Source: Leucoraja ocellata (Eukaryota). Taken from it: a DNA stretch of 64,000 nt. Positions 15,812-63,199 of this stretch are shown here, in pieces (position 1 is the stretch's first letter; the number at the start of each line of letters is the position of its first letter). Made by a program: the position numbers and the translations under genes. The stretch lies in contig JAWMAR010000044.1 in the NCBI GenBank assembly GCA_036785375.1, forward strand, positions 5,890,001-5,954,000, given 5' to 3'. Below the pieces are notes generated by a model. It saw only the letters and a program-made list of their open reading frames with translations, had not been told where the DNA came from and made no database searches.

Positions 15812-15840
15812 CTGAAGAAGGGTTTCGGCCCGAAACGTTG
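15812..15840 (+). ncRNA. Minimal hammerhead ribozyme motif in a Penelope terminal repeat (repeat ~15810-15906)
   Basis: CUGAAGA-A-GGGU(UUCG)GCCC-GAAA-CGUU. Hammerhead core boxes, 4-bp stem II with UUCG loop, self-complementary AACGUU stem III. Activity untested. Confidence 0.65.
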
Positions 15841-16235
15841 CCTATTTCCTTCGCTCCATAGATGCTGCCGCACCCGCTGAGTTTCTCCAGCAATTTTGTC
15901 TACCTTCATTTTTCTTATCACTTTCAAACTACATCCCTTCTCAGCGAGCCTTATGAGTAGCACTCAGTCATGATAGACAATACCTCATATTTCTGAGTAT
16001 ATATTGATGTACAAGTAATACATAGGCTGAAGAACAATATAATCTCAATTTTTAAATTCTGTAATGCAGTTCGTCCAGTCTTTACAGCAGAAAATAAATG
16101 TCTCTCATATAAAAAGAACATCAAGCCGTGTATTTAACTTGCAATACACTTAAGTTGGCTTCAATTTAAAATATATGTCTCTCATTTTATGCAAAAGCCA
16201 GGTCAGAACTGAATGTCTTCAAATCCTTTAACTTG

Positions 16236-16430
16236 TCAGTGCAATAGCACTGGTTTTGTAAGGTTCATCGGTACATAAACATTAGAAGCAGCGTGTTCAC
16301 TCAAGTACTCTCCCCCCTTCTCTTCATAGTCTGCCAGTGTGATCCAGCCTTCAGCTTGATCGATGTGCTCAATAGCCCAGTCTCTTGCACCAAACCAGGC
16401 ATCTAGAACAGGATTGGAAGCAAGGGCCAC
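16236..16430 (-). CDS. ACTR5: ACTR5 exon 9 (terminal coding exon)
   Basis: [22 protein letters not shown]...[36 protein letters not shown]. Acceptor TTTTTCAG|, TGA at 16238-16236. Confidence 0.96.
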
Positions 16431-45254: not shown

Positions 45255-45660
45255 CACTCCTCCACACCCCCCCCCCCCCCCCCCACTCCCCCCTCCCTCC
45301 CCCCTCGTCCCACCCAACCATCCCCCTCAGGATTCCACCCCCTGCAGTAGCCCCTGCCCACCCCCATCCAACAACAACCCTCCCTCACACAACTCTCCCC
45401 ACTAAAATCTGTCTGAGTCATCTCATCCCCTTCAATCCCCCTCAACCTCCTCCAATCCCTCCTCCAACCTCCTCCAATCCCTCCCACCTCCCCCCACCCA
45501 ATCCTTCTCACCCCCCCATCATCCCACTCTCCTCCCCACCCCCTCTCTCCCCGATGCCCCCCCCCCCCCCAATCCTTCTCCCCTTCCCTCAGCATCCTAC
45601 CCATCCACTCCCACTCCCACTCCCACCACCACCATCCCCATCACTCCTCTCCCTCCCGGG
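45255..45660 (-). repeat. C-rich low-complexity tract (G-run-rich on the ACTR5 sense strand) at the start of intron 1
   Basis: Dense CCC/CCCC runs over ~400 bp immediately after the exon 1 donor. Confidence 0.85.
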
Positions 45661-45674
45661 TCTGTAACCTGCAC

Positions 45675-46055
45675 CTGGGAGGCGATGCCGAAGTGCTGGA
45701 AGATGTGGTCGAAGATGTGCTCCTGTATGTCGAGGTTGACCACCACGTTCCTGTCGAACTGGCTCTTGAGGAGCCAGCGGACGAGCTCGACGTTGCCGAT
45801 GTCGTTGCCGACCTGCGTGTCGCTGCGCGCCGCCCCCCGGCCCCGCGCCGCCATGTTCCTGAAGAGCAGCCGCGGTGCCCGCTCCGTCGCCGCCGCCCAG
45901 TCGGCCCGGCACTGGAACGACCCGTTGTCCACCACCAGCGGCAGCCGGCCCTCCCCCAGCTCGAAAACCGGGTCCGCCGCCGCCTTCGCATCCCGAAAAT
46001 AGTAAACATTGGGCGGCGGCGGCTCAGCGCCATCTCGGCCCATGGACGCCGCCAT
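45675..46055 (-). CDS. ACTR5: Actin-related protein 5, coding exon 1
   Basis: MAASMGRD...LVVDNGSFQCRADW...VGN...RWLLKSQFDRNVVVNLDIQEHIFDHIFQHFGIASQ matches the ARP5 N-terminus. ATG in strong context (AAGATGGCG); donor CAG|GTGCAG at 45674. Confidence 0.95.
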
Positions 46056-46120
46056 CTTGGTCCGCCGACAAAAACAACCCTTCCACACGCAAAGCGCCCG
46101 GAACTTTTGTTCCTGCTGCA
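45680..46120 (-). promoter_or_regulatory. CpG island / ACTR5 5' end with YY1 and ETS-like motifs
   Basis: Very GC- and CpG-rich against a CpG-poor background. YY1 consensus AAGATGGCGGC overlaps the ATG (46048-46058); CCGGAA at 46098-46103. Confidence 0.7.
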
Positions 46121-46275
46121 TGCAGTTATATGAATGACAACAGGTAGTTTAACTTCATATAAAGCAAAGATCTTAGAGCAGATCTTTTATATAAAGTTCT
46201 GTAACTGTCAGTCTAGCGACTTGTGGAAGCCACTTTGTAAATTTGGTTGTCTTATCGACTCTCGTTGGCTCGTTT
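46121..46275 (+). mobile_element. Putative left part of the Gypsy 5' LTR, split from its right part (~48954-48991) by the Rex1 insertion
   Basis: Starts TGCAGT and has TATATAAA at 46188-46195. Joined to 48954-48991 it gives a ~200 bp unit ending just before the tRNA-Trp PBS. No 3' LTR is present for confirmation. Confidence 0.45.
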
Positions 46276-47218
46276 ATGAATATACCACAGTCGTTACAGA
46301 CTTCATTAAGAAATGTGTGGAGGACTGCATCCTCATCAAAACCTTCCGAGTGTTTCCCAATCAGAAACCTTGGATGAACTTTGAGATCCGCACTCTTCTG
46401 AAGACCAGACACCGGGCATTCATGTCAGATGATACAGTGGTCTACAAGAAGTCCAGATACGACCTTGGTAAGGCCATCAAAAAGGCTAAAAGGGACTTCT
46501 GCTCCAAGCTGGAGGATGAGACTGATGTTCGGCAGCTGTGGCGGGGCCTGAATGCAATCACCACCAAGGCGAAACCAGGAGGCAGCTCGAATGTTGGCGA
46601 AACATCACTCCCTGACGAGCTCAATGCGTTTTACGCACGCTTTGATGGGGAGAATACTGATGTGCCTTCCCGAGCCCCCATTCGCTGTGATGGTATCTCA
46701 GTCTCAGTCACAGAGGCCGACGTCAAGAAATCCTTCAGAGGGGTGAACCCCCGAAAAGCACCTGGTCCTGATGGCATACCCGGTCGTGTTCTAAAAACCT
46801 GTGCGGACCAACTGGCTGGAGTTTTTACGGACATTTTCAACCTTTCACTACTGAGGTCTGAGGTTCCCACCTGCTTCAAAAGGGCATCAATTATTCCAGT
46901 GCCAAGAAGAGTAAGGTGATGTGCCTCAATGACTATCGACCAGTGGCACCAACGCCGGTGGTGATGAAGTGCTTTGAGAGGTTGATCATGGCGAAAATCA
47001 ACTCCTACCTCGACAAAAACCTGGACCCACTGCAGTTCGCTTACCGCCATAACAGATCAACGGTGGATGCAATCTCGCTGGCTCTCCACTCCGCTCTGGA
47101 CCACTTGGACAACAAAAACTTATATGTCAGGCTGTTATTCTTTGATTACAGCTCGGCATTTAATACTATCATCCCCTCCAAGCTGGTTACCAAACTCGCA
47201 GAACTGGGTCTCTGCGCA

Positions 47219-47999
47219 GGTTACACAGAAAAGCTGGAGAAACTCAGCGGGTGCAGCAGCATCTATGGAGCGAAGGAAATAGGCAACGTTTCGGGCCGAA
47301 ACCCTTCTTCAGACTGATCGGGGGTGGGGGTGGGTGGGGACAAGAAAGGGAAAAGGAGGAGTAGCCAGAAGGCTGGAGGGTGGGAGGAGACAGCAGGGGA
47401 GCTGAGGAAGGGGAGGAGACAGCAAAGACTAACAGAATTGGGAGAATTCGATGTTCATGCCCCGGGGGTGTAGACTCCCCAAACGGAATATGAGGTGCTG
47501 TTCCTCCAATTTCCGGTGCTGCTCGCTGTGGCCATGGAGGAGACCCAGGACAGAGAGGTCGGAGGCGGAGTGGGAGGGGGAGTTGAAGTGCTGAGCCACC
47601 GGGAGGTCAGCTTGGTTATTGCGGACCGAGCGGAGGTGTTCGGCGAAACGATCGCCCAACCTCCGCTTGGTCTCACCGATATAGATCTGCTGGCATCTAG
47701 AGCAGCGGACGCAATAGATGAGGTTGGAAGAGATGCAGGTAAACCTCTGTCGCACCTGGAACGACTGCTTGGGTCCTTGAACGGAGTCGAGGGGGGAGGC
47801 AAAGGGACAAGTGTTGCATCTCCTGCGGCCGCAAGGGAAAGTGCCCGGGGAGGGGGTGGACCGAGAGGGAAGGGAAGAATTGACAAGGGAGTTATGGAGG
47901 GAGCGGTCTTTGCGGAAGGCACCGAGAGGGAAGGGAAGAATTGACAAGGGAGTTATGGAGGGATCGGTCTTTGCGGAAGGCAGACAAGGGAGTTATGGA
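47219..47999 (-). mobile_element. Penelope-like element 3' part (GIY-YIG endonuclease plus terminal repeat) nested in Rex1
   Basis: GTFPCGRRRCNTC...NLIYCVRCSRCQQIYIGETKRRLGDRFAEH...GMNIEFS. Flanked by 13-bp TSD GGGTCTCTGCGCA (47206-47218 and 48000-48012); excision restores Rex1 [17 protein letters not shown]. Confidence 0.93.
47285..47312 (-). ncRNA. Minimal hammerhead ribozyme motif of the nested Penelope element
   Basis: Reverse complement reads CUGAAGAAGGGUUUCGGCCCGAAACGUU, identical to the 15812 copy, ~120 nt downstream of the GIY-YIG stop codon. Confidence 0.65.
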
Positions 48000-48953
48000 G
48001 GGTCTCTGCGCATCCCTCTGCAATTGGATCCTCGACTTCCTCATCCACAGACCACAGTCTGTTCATATTGGTGGAAATGTGTCAGACTCGATAACAATCA
48101 GCACGGGAGCACCTCAAGGCTGCGTGCTCAGCCCCCTGCTGTACTCACTCTATACTCATGACTGCGTAGCCGGTCATAGTGCGAACTCCATAATCAAGTT
48201 TGCTGACGACACCACGGTCGTGGGACGTATCACTGATGGGGATGAGTCCGAGTATAGAAGAGAGATTGAGCAACTGTCCATATGGTGCCAGCACAATAAC
48301 CTGGCTCTCAACACCAGCAAAACCAAGGAACTGATTGTGGACTTTGGAAGGAGTAGGAGGGGGACCCACAGTCCCGTTTATATCAACGGGTCAATGGTTG
48401 AAAGGGTCAAGAGCTTCAAATTCCTGGGCGTGCACATCTCTGAAGATCTTTCCTGGTTCGAGAACACTGATGCAATTATCAAGAAAGCACATCAGCACCT
48501 CTACTTCCTGAGAAGATTACGGAGAGTCGGTTTGTCAAGCAGGACTCTATCTAACTTCTACAGGTGCACAGTAGAGAACATGCTGACCGGTTGCATCGTG
48601 GCTTGGTTCGGCAACTTGAGCGCCCTGGAGAGGAAGAGACCACAAAAAGTAGTAAACACTGCCCAGTCCATCATCGGCTCTGACCTTCCTTCCATCGAGG
48701 GGATTTATCGAAGTCGCTGCCTCAAAAAGGCTGGCAGTATAGCTACTTCCCCACAGCCATCAGGCTATTAAACCTGGCTCGGACAAATCTCTGAACATTA
48801 TAACCCATTATTTGTTATTTGCACTTTATCAGTTTATTTATTCATGTGTTTTGTAGTCAATGCCATTTATGTTCTGTGTGCTGAAGCAAAGCAAGAATTT
48901 CATTGTCCTATCAGGGACACATGACAATAAACTTGAATTTGAACTTAAACTTG

Positions 48954-50562
48954 TTTTGTTAAAATAAGACAATTCAAACCAACTCGTCAAATTGGTGACC
49001 CCGACGCGTCCAATCGAACAATAGACGCCGAACATGCAAGCCACCACCATTCCTGACGCCCAACAAAATGCCGTTGGCCTCAAGCTGCCCGTCTTCTGGC
49101 CCGAACAACTGCAGGTCTGGTTCGCGCAGGTCGAGGCGCAGTTCCACCTACACTACATCGCCGTTGACGACACAAAATATTTTTATGTCGTCAGTGCCCT
49201 CCCGCAAGAGACAGCCTCGCGGTTGCTGCCGTTCCTCCAGAATCCGCTAGCCCTCGCGAAATACGAGGCCCTCAAAGCTCTTCTGCTCTGCACGTTCGGG
49301 CTCAGCCGCCGGGATCGCGCCGCCCAACTCCTGCACATGAACGGTTTGGGCGACCGCAAACCATCCGCGTTGATGATTGAAATGCTGGCCTTAATGGACG
49401 GCCACCACACGTGTCTGCTCTTTGAACAGGCGTTCTTAGAGCAGATGCAGGACGACATCCGCCTCATGCTCGCGGGCGTCGACTTTACCTATCGCATGAG
49501 GCTTGAGGGGAGGGCCGACGAACTCTGGTTGGCGAAGCAGCAAGATGGTGGCGTAATCAGCCGGGTTCCGCGTCCGCGTGCCAGCAGCCTCGGCAAGACT
49601 GCGGCAAAGCCCCGCCCACTGCTTCTACCACTTCCGCTGCCGCCAATCCTACTCATTTCAGGGAAACACCTCGGCCGATCGTCTGTAGAGGCGATCGCGA
49701 TTAACCTTAACAATCGACTCTACGTCCTCGACCGTCACTCCGGCAGGCGTTTCCTCATAACACCGGGGCGATCATCAGCATCCTACCATCGACTGGAAGA
49801 GACACTCGTGCATGTACGCGAGGTCCTGCGCTCACGGCCGTTAACCATAGCACAATTCGAACTTACGGCACGCGGACCCTCTCGCTGTCCTTTGACTCCT
49901 GCCTGTACGAATGGTCGTTCATCGTTGCGGACGTCGCCCAGTCGCTCCTGGGTGCTGACGCCCTGCGGGCCTTCTCCCTTCTCGTCAATGTGCGGGGCGG
50001 CCGCATGATTCCGGCGTCAGACCTCGGACCCGCGGCCCCCTTCAAACCAGCCCACAGCTCAGCGCCATCGGCGAGGTCGACGGCCCCTATGCCTCCCTCC
50101 TCACCGGAGCTCCTCACTCCCCGTTTCAGCGCGATGGCCCCCAAGCACGGAGTCGTCCACCACATTCCCAACGTGGGCCCACCGGTACATGCCCGGGCAC
50201 GACGCCTCCCACCAGATAAACTGCGCATCGCCTGGGAGGAGTTTCAACTCATGGAGGATTTGGGAATTGTCCAGCGCTCAGACAGCCCGTGGGCGTCCCC
50301 ACTGCACATGATCTCAAACGCATCTCAAAAAGTGGAGGCCATGTGGGGACTATAGACGTCTGAACGCCAGCACCACTGCGGACCGCTACCCCGTACCCCA
50401 TATTCAAGACTTTTCTGCCTACCTTGAGGGTGCCACTTTCTTTTCTAAGGTAGACCTGGTCCGTGGGTATAACCAGATTCCCGTCCACCCAGACGATGTC
50501 CCAAAGACCGCGACCATCACCGCGTTTGGTTTATTCGAATGGCTGCGGATGCCCTTTGGTTG
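48954..50562 (+). mobile_element. Degenerate Ty3/Gypsy retrotransposon (CsRn1-like): LTR end, PBS, gag, protease, partial RT
   Basis: PBS TGGTGACCCCGACG (48993-49006) complements the tRNA-Trp 3' end. Gag KLPVFW...WFAQVEAQF...LGDRKPS; protease FLI[D]TGA broken by a 1-nt deletion; [44 protein letters not shown]. Truncated at ~50562. Confidence 0.9.
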
Positions 50563-53500
50563 ACGAACACCTCTCCCATCAGGCAAGAGGTACAGAAGTG
50601 TGAAAACATATACTAGAGAGCGGTCCTGACGTCCCATCTACTTCATCGGAGACCCTTGGTATATTTTGAACCAAACTTTATTGGACCTTATGTTGTACTG
50701 AATGTTATCCCGTGTCTGCACACTGTGACGCTTGATTGTAATCACGTATAATTTTTTTTGCTGACTGGATAGCACACAACAAAAAATATTTTAATTGTAC
50801 CTCGGTACACTTTACTAGAATAAACAAAACCGAAGTGTGGCACGGTGGTGCGGCGGTAGAGTTGCTGCCGCCGGAGAACAGGTTTAATCGCTGGAGAACA
50901 GGTGCGGCCAGTCTGTACGGGTTCTCCCGATGAACTGTTCTCCAAGATCTTCGGTTTTCTCCCACACACCAAAGACGTACAGGTATGTAGGTTCATTGGG
51001 GTCCATTGGCTTGGTGAATGTGTAAATTGCCACTAGTGTGTGTAGGGTGGTGTTAGTGTGCGGGGATCGTGCGGTGGGCCGAAGGGTCTGTTTCCGCGCT
51101 GTATCTCAAAACTAAACACAATTGTATCAAACCTCGTTACAACCAGCCTTACAATCTTCAGAGAATTCAAATTTTCTTGTCCCTAACTTTCAATAAAATA
51201 CAAACAGAAAATGCTGGAAACACACAGAAGGTCAGCCAGTTCTGTGGAAAGAGAAACAGATTTCAGGTCAATGAACCTTAATAGGATTCAGAATTCTTTC
51301 CAGTTGAGTTTAGTGATACAACATGGAAACTGGCCCTTCGGCACACCGAGTCCGTGTCGACTAGCGATCCCCATTACACTAGCACCCACGACACTCTAGG
51401 GGCAATATACAATTTATCCAGAACGTCTTTGGAGGGTGGGAGGTAACCGGAGCACCCAGAGAAAACCCGGGGAGAAGGTACAAACTCCGAGCAAACAACT
51501 CCCATATCAGGATTGAACCCCGGTCTCTGGAGCTCTATCGTGGCACCACCCGTCCCGATGAAGAATATTTGAGTTGTGGCAATAATTCTGTTTCACTCTC
51601 CACAGATGCTGCCTGGCCAGCCTAGTGTATCCAATATTTTCAAATTTGATTTCAAAATTCCAGCAGATGTTTTTTTTGTAGGGATTAGTTAGTGGATTCT
51701 ATCAGGCACCATTAATAGAAAAGCAAAAGCAGCACCTTCTCACTCCTCCCTTGTGGTATTCTTTAAAACTTATTGAGGAACTTTTTGCTATGTTAAAGAT
51801 GATTTGTTTTTAAAAGGCACACATCAATGTAAGACACAAAATGCTGGAGTAACTCTGACATTGCAGGTTGGAATCCTCCTTCAGTCTGAAGAAGGGTTCT
51901 AAACAAAAACAAAAGTCTAGAACATACCTTTAGAAAGAAGATGAGGAGGAATTTATTTGTTTAGAGGGTGGTGAATTTATAGCTTTAATTCGTACAGAAG
52001 GCTGTGGAGAACATCAATGGATATTTTTAAGGCAGAGATTGATAGATTCTTGATTAGTACGGGTGTCGGGGGTTATGGGGAGAAGGCAGGAGAATGGGTT
52101 TGTGAGAGAAAGATAGATCTGCCATGAATGATTGGCGGAGTAGATTGGTTGGGCCGAATGGCCTAACTCTGCTCCTATAACTTATGAACATTGCTACTCC
52201 ATATTTTTCATGGATGCTGCCTGACCTGCTGAGTTACACCAGCATTTTGTGTCTTTCTTTTATATTAGCCAGCATCTGCAGTTCATTGTTATTGCACTTT
52301 GATGTAATTGGACTGTTGGGATGGAAATTCACACGTGCCATTCTTTGCCCCATGACCACTTTAGCTCCATATTCAGTGGTAAATAACTGGCACAATTTGT
52401 TATAGTTGCTGTGATCAGGTTGATACCTCAGAGTGTGATGGTTATTTGTCGCTTCGAGCTGACTCGTTCTTGCACTTGGCACCTCATCCAGATGCTGGAT
52501 ATTTTTCTTTGCATTCAGGTGGACGTAGTTCTCATTTTAGACAGCAGTGGAGAATCTCTCTTTAGTCACCTGAAACATGAATATACATATTCAGATATAA
52601 TTATATGAAATATACAAAGGACAGCAATGGTTCAATGGTGCTTTACCATCACATGGGCAAAGTGCAAACGCACAGTGAAATTCTATTCTTACAAACGGTC
52701 CAGTACAGTATTGCCATACCCAAGCACATCCCTGATTAGCAAGTGAACAGAAATAGTCCACTGATCCCGCATTCAGGAGACGCCATGCTTTGGCATTATT
52801 TTCAAAGTCCAGTCCACGGACTAGTTGTGATGAGTGTTGCCGCTCCAGGCGAGCCCCAGGGCCTCCAGCCATCACCTTCCTTGGACGGGCAGGTTGACCA
52901 GCAAACCGACGTCCCTCTCCTCGCCCGTCCACCTTTGTTCCCCGGGGGCGCCTCCTGCAGCCGACCTCGAGGGTACAGACTGTAGTGCTCCTGGCAACGG
53001 TGCTCTGTCTCTGCTCCAGCGACACTGGCTCGATCCTGCAATCCAGCACTGCCAGTGTGGAGTTTGCATGTTCTCCCTGTGACCGCATGGATTTCTTCAT
53101 GGGTGCCTCAGTTTCTTCTACATCTCAAAGACATACGGGTTGCGAGGTTAATTGGGCATTGCCTCAAAAAGACAGCCAGCATCATCAAAGACCCACACCA
53201 ACCTGGCCATGCTCTCATTTCACTCCCACCATCTGGAAGAAGGTATAGGAGACTGAAAACCATGACCACCAATTTCAGGAACAGTCTCATCCCCACTACC
53301 AACAGGCTCTTAAACACTACACAACACTAACCTCAACTATGAACTATGGATTGTCTTTGCATTGCGGACTGCGGGCTTTTATACACGTTTGGGGTTATTC
53401 ATTTGTTGATCTTTGTTTATTATGTATTATCTAAGTGTGTTGCATTTCGAGGCTTGCTAAGCTGCTGCAAATAAGAATTTCATTGGTCTATTGTCAGTAC

Positions 53501-63088: not shown

Positions 63089-63199
63089 ATGGTGAAGATC
63101 GGGGTATTCGCCAAGAAGGTTTGGAGCCTCCGTAAAACCATCGTGGTCTTCTTCACACCTGTGATACTTTCCCCTATTTTGGTCTTCGTAAGTCCCAAG
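63089..63199 (+). CDS. SLC13A3: Solute carrier family 13 member 3 (Na+/dicarboxylate cotransporter NaDC3), coding exon 1; gene continues beyond the window
   Basis: Hand translation MVKIGVFAKKVWSLRKTIVVFFTPVILSPILVFVSPK (37 aa) then AAG|GTAAAT donor. Aligns without gaps to recalled human MAALAAAAKKVWSARRLLVLLFTPLALLPVVFALPPK. Confidence 0.85.

Follow-up and report, generated by a model that had tools for sequence, protein, structure and literature searches.

A nest of dead retrotransposons beside a most likely older, compact ACTR5 promoter in a skate

Introduction

Which promoter does a basic-function gene use when retrotransposons lie almost against its start codon? The question is raised by ACTR5 in the skate Leucoraja ocellata, within the 64-kb stretch of DNA analysed here (64,000 nucleotides, hereafter the window, to which all positions refer). 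A sequence-only reading had described a nest upstream of the gene, in which a Penelope element sits inside a Rex1 LINE that had itself entered the 5' LTR of a Gypsy element. It had placed the start of that LTR at 46121, leaving ACTR5 only ~65 bp of non-transposon DNA, and had offered either a compact promoter with a YY1-type element or the LTR acting as a bidirectional promoter. We confirm the three-layer nest. The element families and the promoter type are already known; what is unusual is the tightness of the spot. A search of the open literature, read by title and abstract start among the papers listed, found no publication on this locus.

Results

The nest, and the fragment that ends it, comprise the following features.

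46276..48953, plus strand: Rex1-type LINE, 5'-truncated, with a reverse transcriptase (RT) carrying one frameshift, a 3' UTR and a short tandem tail; split by Penelope
47219..47999, minus strand: 3' part of a Penelope-like element, made up of a putative GIY-YIG region and a high-copy terminal repeat; 61 bp are tandemly duplicated where it is truncated
48954..48991, plus strand: 38-bp stub from the 3' end of the 5' LTR of the Gypsy, with the right arm of a 9-bp inverted pair (48964-48972), directly before the primer-binding site
48993..49008, plus strand: primer-binding site (PBS), tRNA-Trp type; the same 13-mer, with at most 2 mismatches, precedes gag in 65 of 78 related loci
49034..50570, plus strand: dead CsRN1-type Gypsy that has lost its 3' half and retains gag, protease and the beginning of RT, with several frameshifts and a zinc knuckle that is shortened
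50570..50830, plus strand: 3' fragment of another high-copy LINE, ending the Gypsy; 651-797 contigs per DNA run start matching at 50570

The limits first given for the Rex1 LINE and its Penelope guest hold. Homology to relatives begins at 46272-46281 in 43 of the 66 alignments that start within 46100-46400, and the RT (RVT_1 and PF09004) lies in two halves that form one continuous protein (P0153, 91-95% alike). Relatives extend upstream of 46276, so that the copy is 5'-truncated, with RT and no endonuclease. A short tandem oligonucleotide tail follows the 3' UTR at 48929-48953 (loose ends of the family fall at 48933), the copy is internally deleted near 48740-48815, and a possible, weak 4-bp duplication (46272-46275 / 48953-48956) surrounds it. 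From its architecture we take the LINE to be of Rex1 type, the relatives matched carrying no Rex1 name. Its 5' frame had no match to another open reading frame of the window. Reading 46245-46275 as internally deleted Rex1 was rejected: only 10 of 66 alignments get there, through a gap, and profile tests gave p 0.30 and 0.45. In a second sample, an X2 contig covering 45670-46305 (5 differences) ends 30 nt into Rex1, where depth climbs to 1e5-1e6, and another (48939-49439, 0 differences) crosses the right junction. Since both outer Rex1 junctions recur in that sample, the misassembly considered earlier is unlikely there.

Penelope inserted into Rex1. The fragment, first described as flanked by a target duplication, indeed lies between exact 13-bp copies (47206-47218 / 48000-48012), and other Rex1 copies are uninterrupted at this site in four of four runs (joint 47205 to 48000, with 13 letters that fit both sides). 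This empty-site joint was seen in 13, 13 and 11 contigs and in 44 reads; the joints and pieces listed, 15 of ~1,500 and 24 of ~325,000, are dominated by Rex1 and Penelope. The 781-bp fragment ends before the RT. Its GIY-YIG region matched PF01541 at E 0.0011 and 19.7 bits, below the Pfam cut-off of 22.6, and a solved-structure search with this piece gave no match. The terminal repeat holds what we take to be a hammerhead-like core motif; it had no Rfam match at E 0.5 and folded no better than shuffles.

To the right of Rex1, the earlier call of a tRNA-Trp PBS with Gypsy gag-pol stands for the PBS and gag, whereas pol amounts to protease and the first part of RT, frameshifted. A tRNA-Trp PBS is a CsRn1 trait (PMC2582038), which the skate copy would share, judging by the likeness of its 13-mer to related loci. 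The LTR stub ends AAA-T, as in 2 of 65 relatives. Gag, from 49034, is PF23055, and gag, protease and RT start are colinear with relatives; all seven closest full-length relatives (P0001-P0007) carry the CHCC knuckle CX2HX9CX3C, which in this copy is present through CX2H and shortened beyond. RNase H, integrase and a 3' LTR are absent from the 64-kb window, where self-BLAST also found no second Gypsy copy; 50705-50830 has further copies there. No gag relative was found among viral contigs, the exact 24-nt LTR-end/PBS pattern had 0 matches in metagenome contigs, and an Rfam search gave no match. The CpG o/e is 1.05 in the Gypsy body, 0.47 in the window and 0.69-1.14 in related elements, and one Gypsy CpG (49594-49595) has decayed in both directions. 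Gag domestication and a Gypsy CpG island were considered and rejected, given the frameshifts and the equally CpG-rich relatives.

Gypsy ortholog pieces in organism B stand at 95.5-97.9% and paralog pieces at 83-88%, among the pieces listed. X2 contigs run unbroken over 501 and 306 bp of the Gypsy, which, together with the divergence of its paralogs and set against the contig break exactly 30 nt into Rex1, suggests that the Gypsy is older than Rex1. Three observations lead us to infer that Rex1 inserted into the LTR end: a 38-bp stub follows the intact tail of Rex1, the Gypsy is the more diverged element, and depths match in two of three runs. Residual contig depth is 25.2 at both 46249 and 48980 in X2, 49.5 and 49.6 in X10, and unequal in X7 (189 left of Rex1, 28.4 right). 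Of the order first proposed, Gypsy, then Rex1, then Penelope, the last step is thus established, and entry of Rex1 into the 5' LTR would be the step before it. A joined LTR paralog is not among the 15 joints listed, and placing LTR on both sides of Rex1 draws on depth arithmetic. The Rex1 junction seems to be present in organism C as well, with 34 letters overhanging past 46275, close to the break 30 nt into Rex1; the Gypsy contigs there are paralog-like only (49183-49202 and 49487-49509), with none at 49757-49759. A Rex1 junction without the orthologous Gypsy body in this organism therefore calls for later loss or a data hole.

On the other side of the nest lie the gene and the DNA that separates it from Rex1.

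46053-46055, minus strand: ACTR5 start codon ATG
45666..46055, minus strand: ACTR5 coding exon 1, CpG-rich (o/e 1.10), 98% to P0013
46048..46059, minus strand: predicted TISU / YY1-type element that spans the start codon, a sequence match with the core AAGATGGC
46056..46113, minus strand: putative native 5' leader and core promoter, predating the nest; sawfish match, single-copy in X2 and X7
46114..46156, unstranded: probably native upstream promoter DNA, including the proposed LTR start at 46121; weak sawfish match, colinear in organisms A, B and C
46151..46198, unstranded: AT-rich palindrome with a 24-bp inverted unit (46165-46188) and 8-bp direct repeats (46157-46164 / 46189-46196)
46222..46275, plus strand: best candidate LTR sequence left of Rex1, with a TGTGG start at 46222 and the left arm of the 9-bp pair (46247-46255)

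ACTR5 gave nine coding exon matches, down to a stop at 16236; P0013 is a 592-aa transcript-contig protein whose cluster carries the batoid ACTR5 name, and Ala directly follows the ATG in 7 of 7 chondrichthyan ACTR5 matches listed. The compact promoter with a YY1-type element that had been suggested agrees with what we found, a TISU/YY1-type core containing the start codon. The TISU motif lies at +5 to +30 relative to the start site, and such promoters belong to ~4% of human genes, with a median leader of 12 nt (PMC2518114). With a TISU/YY1 element on the ATG, transcription is predicted to start 5-30 nt upstream, so that no LTR promoter would be needed. A sawfish ACTR5 model with an in-frame upstream extension aligns up to 46143 at 37.8 bits (0 of 150 shuffles above 12.3), strongly from the ATG to 46113 and weakly from there to 46143 (p 0.12 anchored; 0.012 as best of 4 offsets), and establishes, at the level of sequence, that 46056-46113 is conserved. 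This stretch includes an imperfect site at 46098-46104, which we presume to be ETS-like. The sawfish model has an Arg codon in place of Lys just before its ATG, an altered ETS-like core and a TISU core one base off; given the first two of these changes, the motifs concerned are not conserved strictly. If they end at the repeat 322 nt past the stop, transcript contigs of 2165, 2180 and 2185 nt would have a leader of 34-84 nt, a weak indication. An RNA run from organism C (X22, 6% read) placed 0 reads on either exon 1 or the Gypsy body, showed no pile-up of starts, and is uninformative. Most likely, ACTR5 still uses its own older compact promoter.

The letters TG do stand at 46121, as first read; the boundary drawn there was an interpretation and lacks the clade start motif TGT(G/A)G. 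Among 21 related LTRs (120-364 bp, median 178; GC 0.33-0.56), 20 begin TGT and 20 have starts scoring 6.2-12.7 on a position weight matrix (PWM), against -2.6 at 46121. The best-scoring start is 46222, at 6.0 bits, a score that 35% of random windows reach. An LTR from 46222 would be 89-92 bp, below all 21 relatives; a start at 46121-46157 fits their range. The middle of 46121-46275 is single-copy in two of the three DNA runs: X2 depth is only 21.8 at 46188 and 46218, and X10 leaves a residual 21.4 at 46218. X7 (organism B) has extra contigs at 46188 (17.0) and 46218 (79.2), and an extra contig at 46249-46257 occurs in all three runs (X2, X7, X10). An extra X10 contig at 46081-46095 was rejected as an LTR start, being a CA-rich stretch with low-complexity matches elsewhere in the window. 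Three organisms retain the left segment at 98-99%, and 46121-46275 persists in a relative that showed no orthologous Gypsy body. Self-BLAST found no second copy of it within the 64-kb window, and the left and right segments, each alone, gave nothing below E 0.24 against 78 related loci. The 9-bp inverted pair is present as described and statistically weak: pairs of at least 9 bp turned up in 4.3% of shuffled sequences and in 2.6% of window pairs drawn at random, a figure of 0.9% applying when the pair is confined to the last 40 bp. As a clade hallmark it was rejected, eight related LTRs showing 4-7 bp. The AT-rich palindrome scores z -3.2, and may be native DNA, LTR U3 or a mini-insertion. In organism C the contig breaks at 46156, with depth 0 at 46188 and a residual 21.4 at 46218, and 32 bp of the block appear to be absent, an indel deduced from contig break and depth.

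LTR-like support is confined to ~46249-46275. The proposed LTR start at 46121, with its ~65 bp of non-transposon DNA, is not supported, given the PWM score, the middle that is single-copy in two of three DNA runs, the sawfish match and the persistence of the segment in a relative that showed no orthologous Gypsy body; 46121-46218 largely behaves as single-copy DNA kept in such a relative, with the limit that holes in a contig set prove nothing. The LTR left of Rex1 probably begins somewhere in 46143-46249, and the transposon-free zone is probably 90-190 bp, 220 bp at most.

Discussion

We consider it probable that this is an ordinary nest of dead retrotransposons beside an old compact housekeeping promoter. 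It is unlikely that all of 46121-46275, or the part from ~46143, is U3/R of the 5' LTR, with transposon DNA 65-90 bp from the ATG and ACTR5 on its proximal core. Such an LTR would measure 158-190 bp, inside the range of relatives and close to their median, and near the pufferfish CsRN1 LTRs of 174 and 302 bp (PMC11117352); the segment's GC of 0.36 also lies in range, 46143 misses a TGTAG start by one base and coincides with the end of the sawfish match, the extra X7 contigs at 46188 and 46218 favour a longer LTR, and single-copy status is compatible with an old LTR at 80% likeness. However, 46121 has no start motif, the weak sawfish match runs across 46121-46143, X2 and X10 show the segment at single copy against a summed contig depth of 160-2800 for the Gypsy body, and no match below E 0.4 was found among 78 related loci. 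Less probable still is that nothing left of Rex1 is LTR and 46056-46275 is all native, either because Rex1 deleted the rest of the LTR or because Rex1 came first and the Gypsy later. In two of the three DNA runs the residual depths at 46249 and at 48980 agree, which argues against this, as do a deletion that must end exactly at an intact Rex1 tail, a Gypsy more diverged than Rex1 and the possible 4-bp duplication, even though organism C has the left segment, and probably the Rex1 junction, with paralog-like Gypsy contigs only, the 9-bp pair is near chance and the 46222 motif is not significant.

For the LTR as a bidirectional promoter of ACTR5, as once suggested, no evidence emerged, and we regard an LTR acting as its bidirectional or essential upstream promoter as very improbable. 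The head-to-head geometry would suit it, as would TATA-like words in the palindrome (46157-46196), the 98-99% conservation of the left segment and the CpG-rich Gypsy body; yet the proximal promoter is common to sawfish, the TATA-like words point away from ACTR5 or are >100 bp distant from its start codon, organism C has apparently lost 32 bp of the block, the left segment is conserved about as well as the dead Gypsy body in organism B, and related elements are equally CpG-rich, with one CpG decayed both ways. A misassembly joining unrelated repeats would fit the facts that no contig listed spans the whole stretch and that this copy's two Penelope junctions are not among the joints listed; it is hardly credible beside outer Rex1 junctions in single-copy contigs of a second sample, an exact Penelope duplication and Rex1 halves that continue one protein. 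A more speculative variant, to which we give little credence, is that a Gypsy LTR from 46143, ~88 bp off the ATG, settled in the TISU nucleosome-free zone, its AT-rich palindromic U3 block being kept as a promoter element. If true, it would offer a dated, side-by-side case of a cartilaginous fish in which the promoter of an essential gene took up a piece of LTR, the block having been cut off by Rex1 and retained without the Gypsy body.

On the reading of an ordinary nest beside an old promoter, a CsRN1-type Gypsy would have integrated head-to-head with ACTR5. A 5'-truncated Rex1 may then have entered a T-run ~35-38 bp from the 3' end of the 5' LTR by target-primed reverse transcription, the Penelope fragment would have followed into the Rex1 RT with a 13-bp duplication, and the Gypsy 3' half would have been lost at the junction with another LINE fragment. 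Transcription of ACTR5 most likely begins 5-55 nt before the ATG, at a CpG-rich promoter that is TATA-independent and carries a TISU/YY1 element, and the DNA that needs to stay intact would be the first 60-90 bp and exon 1, with the nest just outside. If so, the locus is a natural deletion experiment that bounds the upstream need of a vertebrate TISU/YY1 housekeeping promoter at ~60-220 bp, and the Gypsy body, the 32-bp indel and Penelope could serve as presence/absence markers for skate relationships. No new mechanism is revealed; greater weight would follow only if the AT-rich block were LTR-derived and required for ACTR5 expression.

Each component has known counterparts. An LTR-derived bidirectional promoter is exemplified by the human ERV LTR common to DSCR4 and DSCR8; the skate locus shares its head-to-head gene/LTR geometry, but here ACTR5 most likely has an older core promoter, the LTR is broken and no transcript starting in it was seen. 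With the CsRN1 Gypsy/Ty3 clade (CsRn1, PwRn1, AgCR, pufferfish CsRN1-1/-2), the skate copy shares the tRNA-Trp-type PBS, a short LTR stub, the gag-protease-RT order and a gag family whose 7 closest full-length relatives carry CX2HX9CX3C; unlike them it is dead, being frameshifted, with a knuckle truncated after CX2H and an interrupted LTR, and it lacks RNase H, integrase and a 3' LTR. As in Rex1/Babar, 5' truncation leaves an RT without endonuclease, and RVT_1 goes with PF09004 as in 120 of 120 relatives listed. A 3' UTR followed by a short oligonucleotide tail, described for Rex1/Babar (PMC6274825), is present too, whereas the skate copy is Penelope-split and internally deleted. With Penelope-like elements of fishes (Poseidon/Neptune types), the fragment would share a GIY-YIG region at the C-terminal end and, after it, a high-copy terminal repeat, and hammerhead motifs are reported in fish elements (PMC4209133); the skate fragment differs in being 781 bp, with no RT and no Rfam match. 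Finally, like TISU/YY1 housekeeping promoters, that of ACTR5 has the core AAGATGGC on its start codon, a CpG-rich exon 1 and a gene of basic function, but unlike them it has retroelement DNA within 220 bp and a core one base off in the sawfish model.

Gene and nest structure

The ACTR5 start codon lies at 46053-46055 on the minus strand, and the translation of exon 1 is 98% like P0013, a 592-aa ACTR5 protein from a transcript contig, which groups with annotated ACTR5 from skates and rays. P0013 is covered by nine matching exons, the last reaching the stop at 16236. PMC9788768 describes ACTR5 as an INO80 subunit. All coordinates of the sequence-only reading were borne out on checking, and the upstream arrangement is as follows.

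220 bp between the ACTR5 ATG and Rex1: low-copy DNA
46276-48953: Rex1-type LINE (RVT_1 and PF09004)
47219-47999, minus strand: Penelope-like fragment within Rex1
38 bp between the Rex1 tail and the primer-binding site: stub
48993: primer-binding site
Up to ~50570: Gypsy gag, protease and start of RT
From 50570: 3' fragment of another high-copy LINE

Searching the window by tblastn with three full-length relatives gave no match past 50560, so the RNase H, integrase and 3' LTR of the Gypsy are absent from it. Where the Penelope insert is cut short (47860-48002), it carries a 61-bp tandem duplication and a third copy of 20 bp, as template jumping would leave.

Head-to-head with ACTR5, 17 kb apart, another gene opens with its first coding exon at 63089-63199 (plus strand); we take this gene to resemble SLC13A3 or a paralog. 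Self-BLAST of the window, which misses repeats lacking a second copy there, places the nearest self-repeat 499 bp upstream of this gene start, with a median gap of 244 bp between self-repeats. A young Penelope terminal-repeat copy (15812-15913, 94.5% like 47222-47312) lies 322 nt past the ACTR5 stop; no canonical poly(A) signal was seen between the two, so the repeat may lie inside the 3' UTR. Intron 1 begins with a long C-rich low-complexity tract (45260-45660; transcribed strand G-rich), a possible G-quadruplex or pausing region.

Assembly and order of insertions

Four public runs were compared with 45670-50750 at 80% likeness, and 15 of about 1,500 joints and 24 of about 325,000 pieces were listed. 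X2, which samples the best-matching organism a second time, yielded a single-copy contig spanning 45670-46305 with five differences from the window, which stops exactly 30 nt into Rex1, matching the repeat start at 46276, and another spanning 48939-49439 with none. Both outer Rex1 junctions are thus recovered and real. For the Penelope insert in this copy, whose junctions are absent among the listed rows, the evidence is an exact 13-bp duplication and the continuity of other Rex1 copies, unbroken at the site in four of four runs, which shows that Penelope went into Rex1, as had been proposed.

The preceding step, Rex1 into the 5' LTR of Gypsy, we infer from several lines of evidence. After an intact Rex1 tail only 38 bp remain before the primer site; the 21 distinct LTRs from related elements (one apparently a false pick) measure 120-364 bp, median 178. 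Gypsy is also the more diverged element, its paralog pieces being 83-88% alike among those listed; its X2 contigs are unbroken for 501 and 306 bp. Finally, contig depth after removal of the locus's own contig and gapped repeat contigs agrees between 46249-46257 and 48980 in X2 (25.2 and 25.2) and in X10, a DNA run of organism C (49.5 and 49.6), as if one copy elsewhere carries both LTR pieces, although their joint is absent among the 15 of about 1,500 listed. In X7, from organism B, the depths do not match (189 vs 28.4). The 9-bp inverted pair cited for this order is present but adds little, arising by chance in 2.6-4.3% of cases, or 0.9% if limited to the last 40 bp.

Organism C has 34 letters of overhang past 46275, and the Rex1 junction appears common to it. 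Its Gypsy contigs are only paralog-like (49183-49202 and 49487-49509), and among the pieces listed it has no contig at 49757-49759, where X2 and X7 carry the ortholog. This pattern needs later loss of the Gypsy body, a data hole or the reverse insertion order.

Native DNA upstream of ACTR5

The sequence-only reading began the LTR at 46121, leaving ACTR5 only ~65 bp of non-transposon upstream DNA; neither claim gained support. Related LTRs start TGT in 20 of 21 cases, mostly TGTGG or TGTAG, and 46121 scores -2.6 against their start motif vs 6.2-12.7 for 20 related starts. In X2 the depth at 46188 and 46218 is that of one contig, and so it is in X10 at 46218, against a summed depth of 160-2800 across the Gypsy body. 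Extra depth at 46188 and 46218 appears in X7 (17.0 and 79.2). The highest-scoring site, 46222, reaches 6.0, as do 35% of random windows. Against so late a start, the LTR would be only 89-92 bp, shorter than any of the 21 relatives; a single base separates 46143 from a TGTAG start. Most weight falls on a start between 46143 and 46249. The stretch free of transposon DNA probably spans about 90-190 bp, with 220 bp as its upper limit.

The sawfish ACTR5 model P0133 opens with 39 extra residues, an in-frame reading of the upstream DNA. Aligned with the window between the ATG and 46143, the codon profile of this extension scores 37.8 bits (0 of 150 shuffles above 12.3), almost all from ATG-46113, the part beyond giving 4.2 bits (p 0.12); from 46121 it gives 8.4 bits at the best of four offsets (p 0.012). 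Judged by this alignment, 46056-46113 is old native DNA, and 46114-46143 is probably native as well. Residues 1-39 match the skate DNA across a frameshift, and the extension is probably a mis-called start reading through the promoter.

Further out, 46151-46198 is AT-rich and palindromic (z -3.2), and within it 8-bp direct repeats flank a palindromic unit of 24 bp (46157-46196 together); organism B has a perfect 9-bp inverted pair here (46188 G). The organism C contig breaks at 46156, with no depth at 46188 and depth again at 46218, from which we infer that the direct repeats bound an indel of 32 bp; a doubled TATA-like word in this block is therefore not fixed among the compared relatives. The 24-bp unit may be a very small hAT-like insertion or its footprint; alternatively, slippage removed a hairpin in organism C.

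A probable compact promoter

A TISU core, AAGATGGC, includes the ACTR5 start codon, in line with the YY1-type element suggested earlier. According to PMC2518114, ~4% of human genes carry this motif 5-30 nt past the transcription start, with a median leader of 12 nt and YY1 as main binder. CpG o/e is 1.1 in exon 1 and leader. Three transcript-type contigs (2165-2185 nt) weakly suggest a leader of 34-84 nt, provided that their 3' ends coincide with the repeat located 322 nt past the stop. Sawfish has an Arg codon before the ATG and a change in what we take to be an ETS-like site, so neither motif is strictly conserved.

Five sites differ between X2 and the window within 67 bp (46029-46095, start codon and leader), sparing the TISU core, and none over 807 bp of Gypsy contigs. 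All three DNA runs have C at 46067, giving a GC box. RNA run X22 has no reads on ACTR5 exon 1.

The predicted promoter would comprise exon 1 and 60-90 bp, which would explain why the nest is tolerated. Nothing found requires the LTR for ACTR5 expression. High CpG in Gypsy was rejected as a sign of promoter use, because eight relatives are similar (1.05 vs 0.69-1.14) and, when the window is compared with organism B, one CpG site shows decay in either direction.

Comparison with known elements

The primer site is common to 65 of 78 related Gypsy loci and a CHCC knuckle to 7 of 7 full-length gag relatives (P0001-P0007), traits that PMC2582038 gives for the CsRN1 clade; by traits rather than tree placement, this Gypsy would be of CsRN1 type. 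Three related loci (L012, L019, L076) show the primer-binding site again after a downstream LTR copy, and are either tandem elements or collapsed assemblies. Two Narcine CCDC175 models (P0010, P0011) open with ~170 residues of the same gag family, either an annotation fusion or exonised Gypsy.

The clade is named in PMC3670739, and LTR end motifs are described in PMC3601003, which places CsRN1 outside vertebrates. PMC11117352, however, reports CsRN1 in pufferfishes, the LTRs there being 174 and 302 bp long, and this skate copy is therefore not the first from a vertebrate. The Rex1 features are those given in PMC6274825, and hammerheads occur in fish Penelope elements according to PMC4209133. 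Among the titles and abstract openings listed by a literature search, no publication on this locus appeared. The striking part of the sequence-only reading, in which the LTR begins 65 bp from the ACTR5 start codon and possibly drives the gene, is unsupported, though it keeps a small probability. Rather, this is a well-ordered nest of known, dead elements near a known kind of compact promoter.
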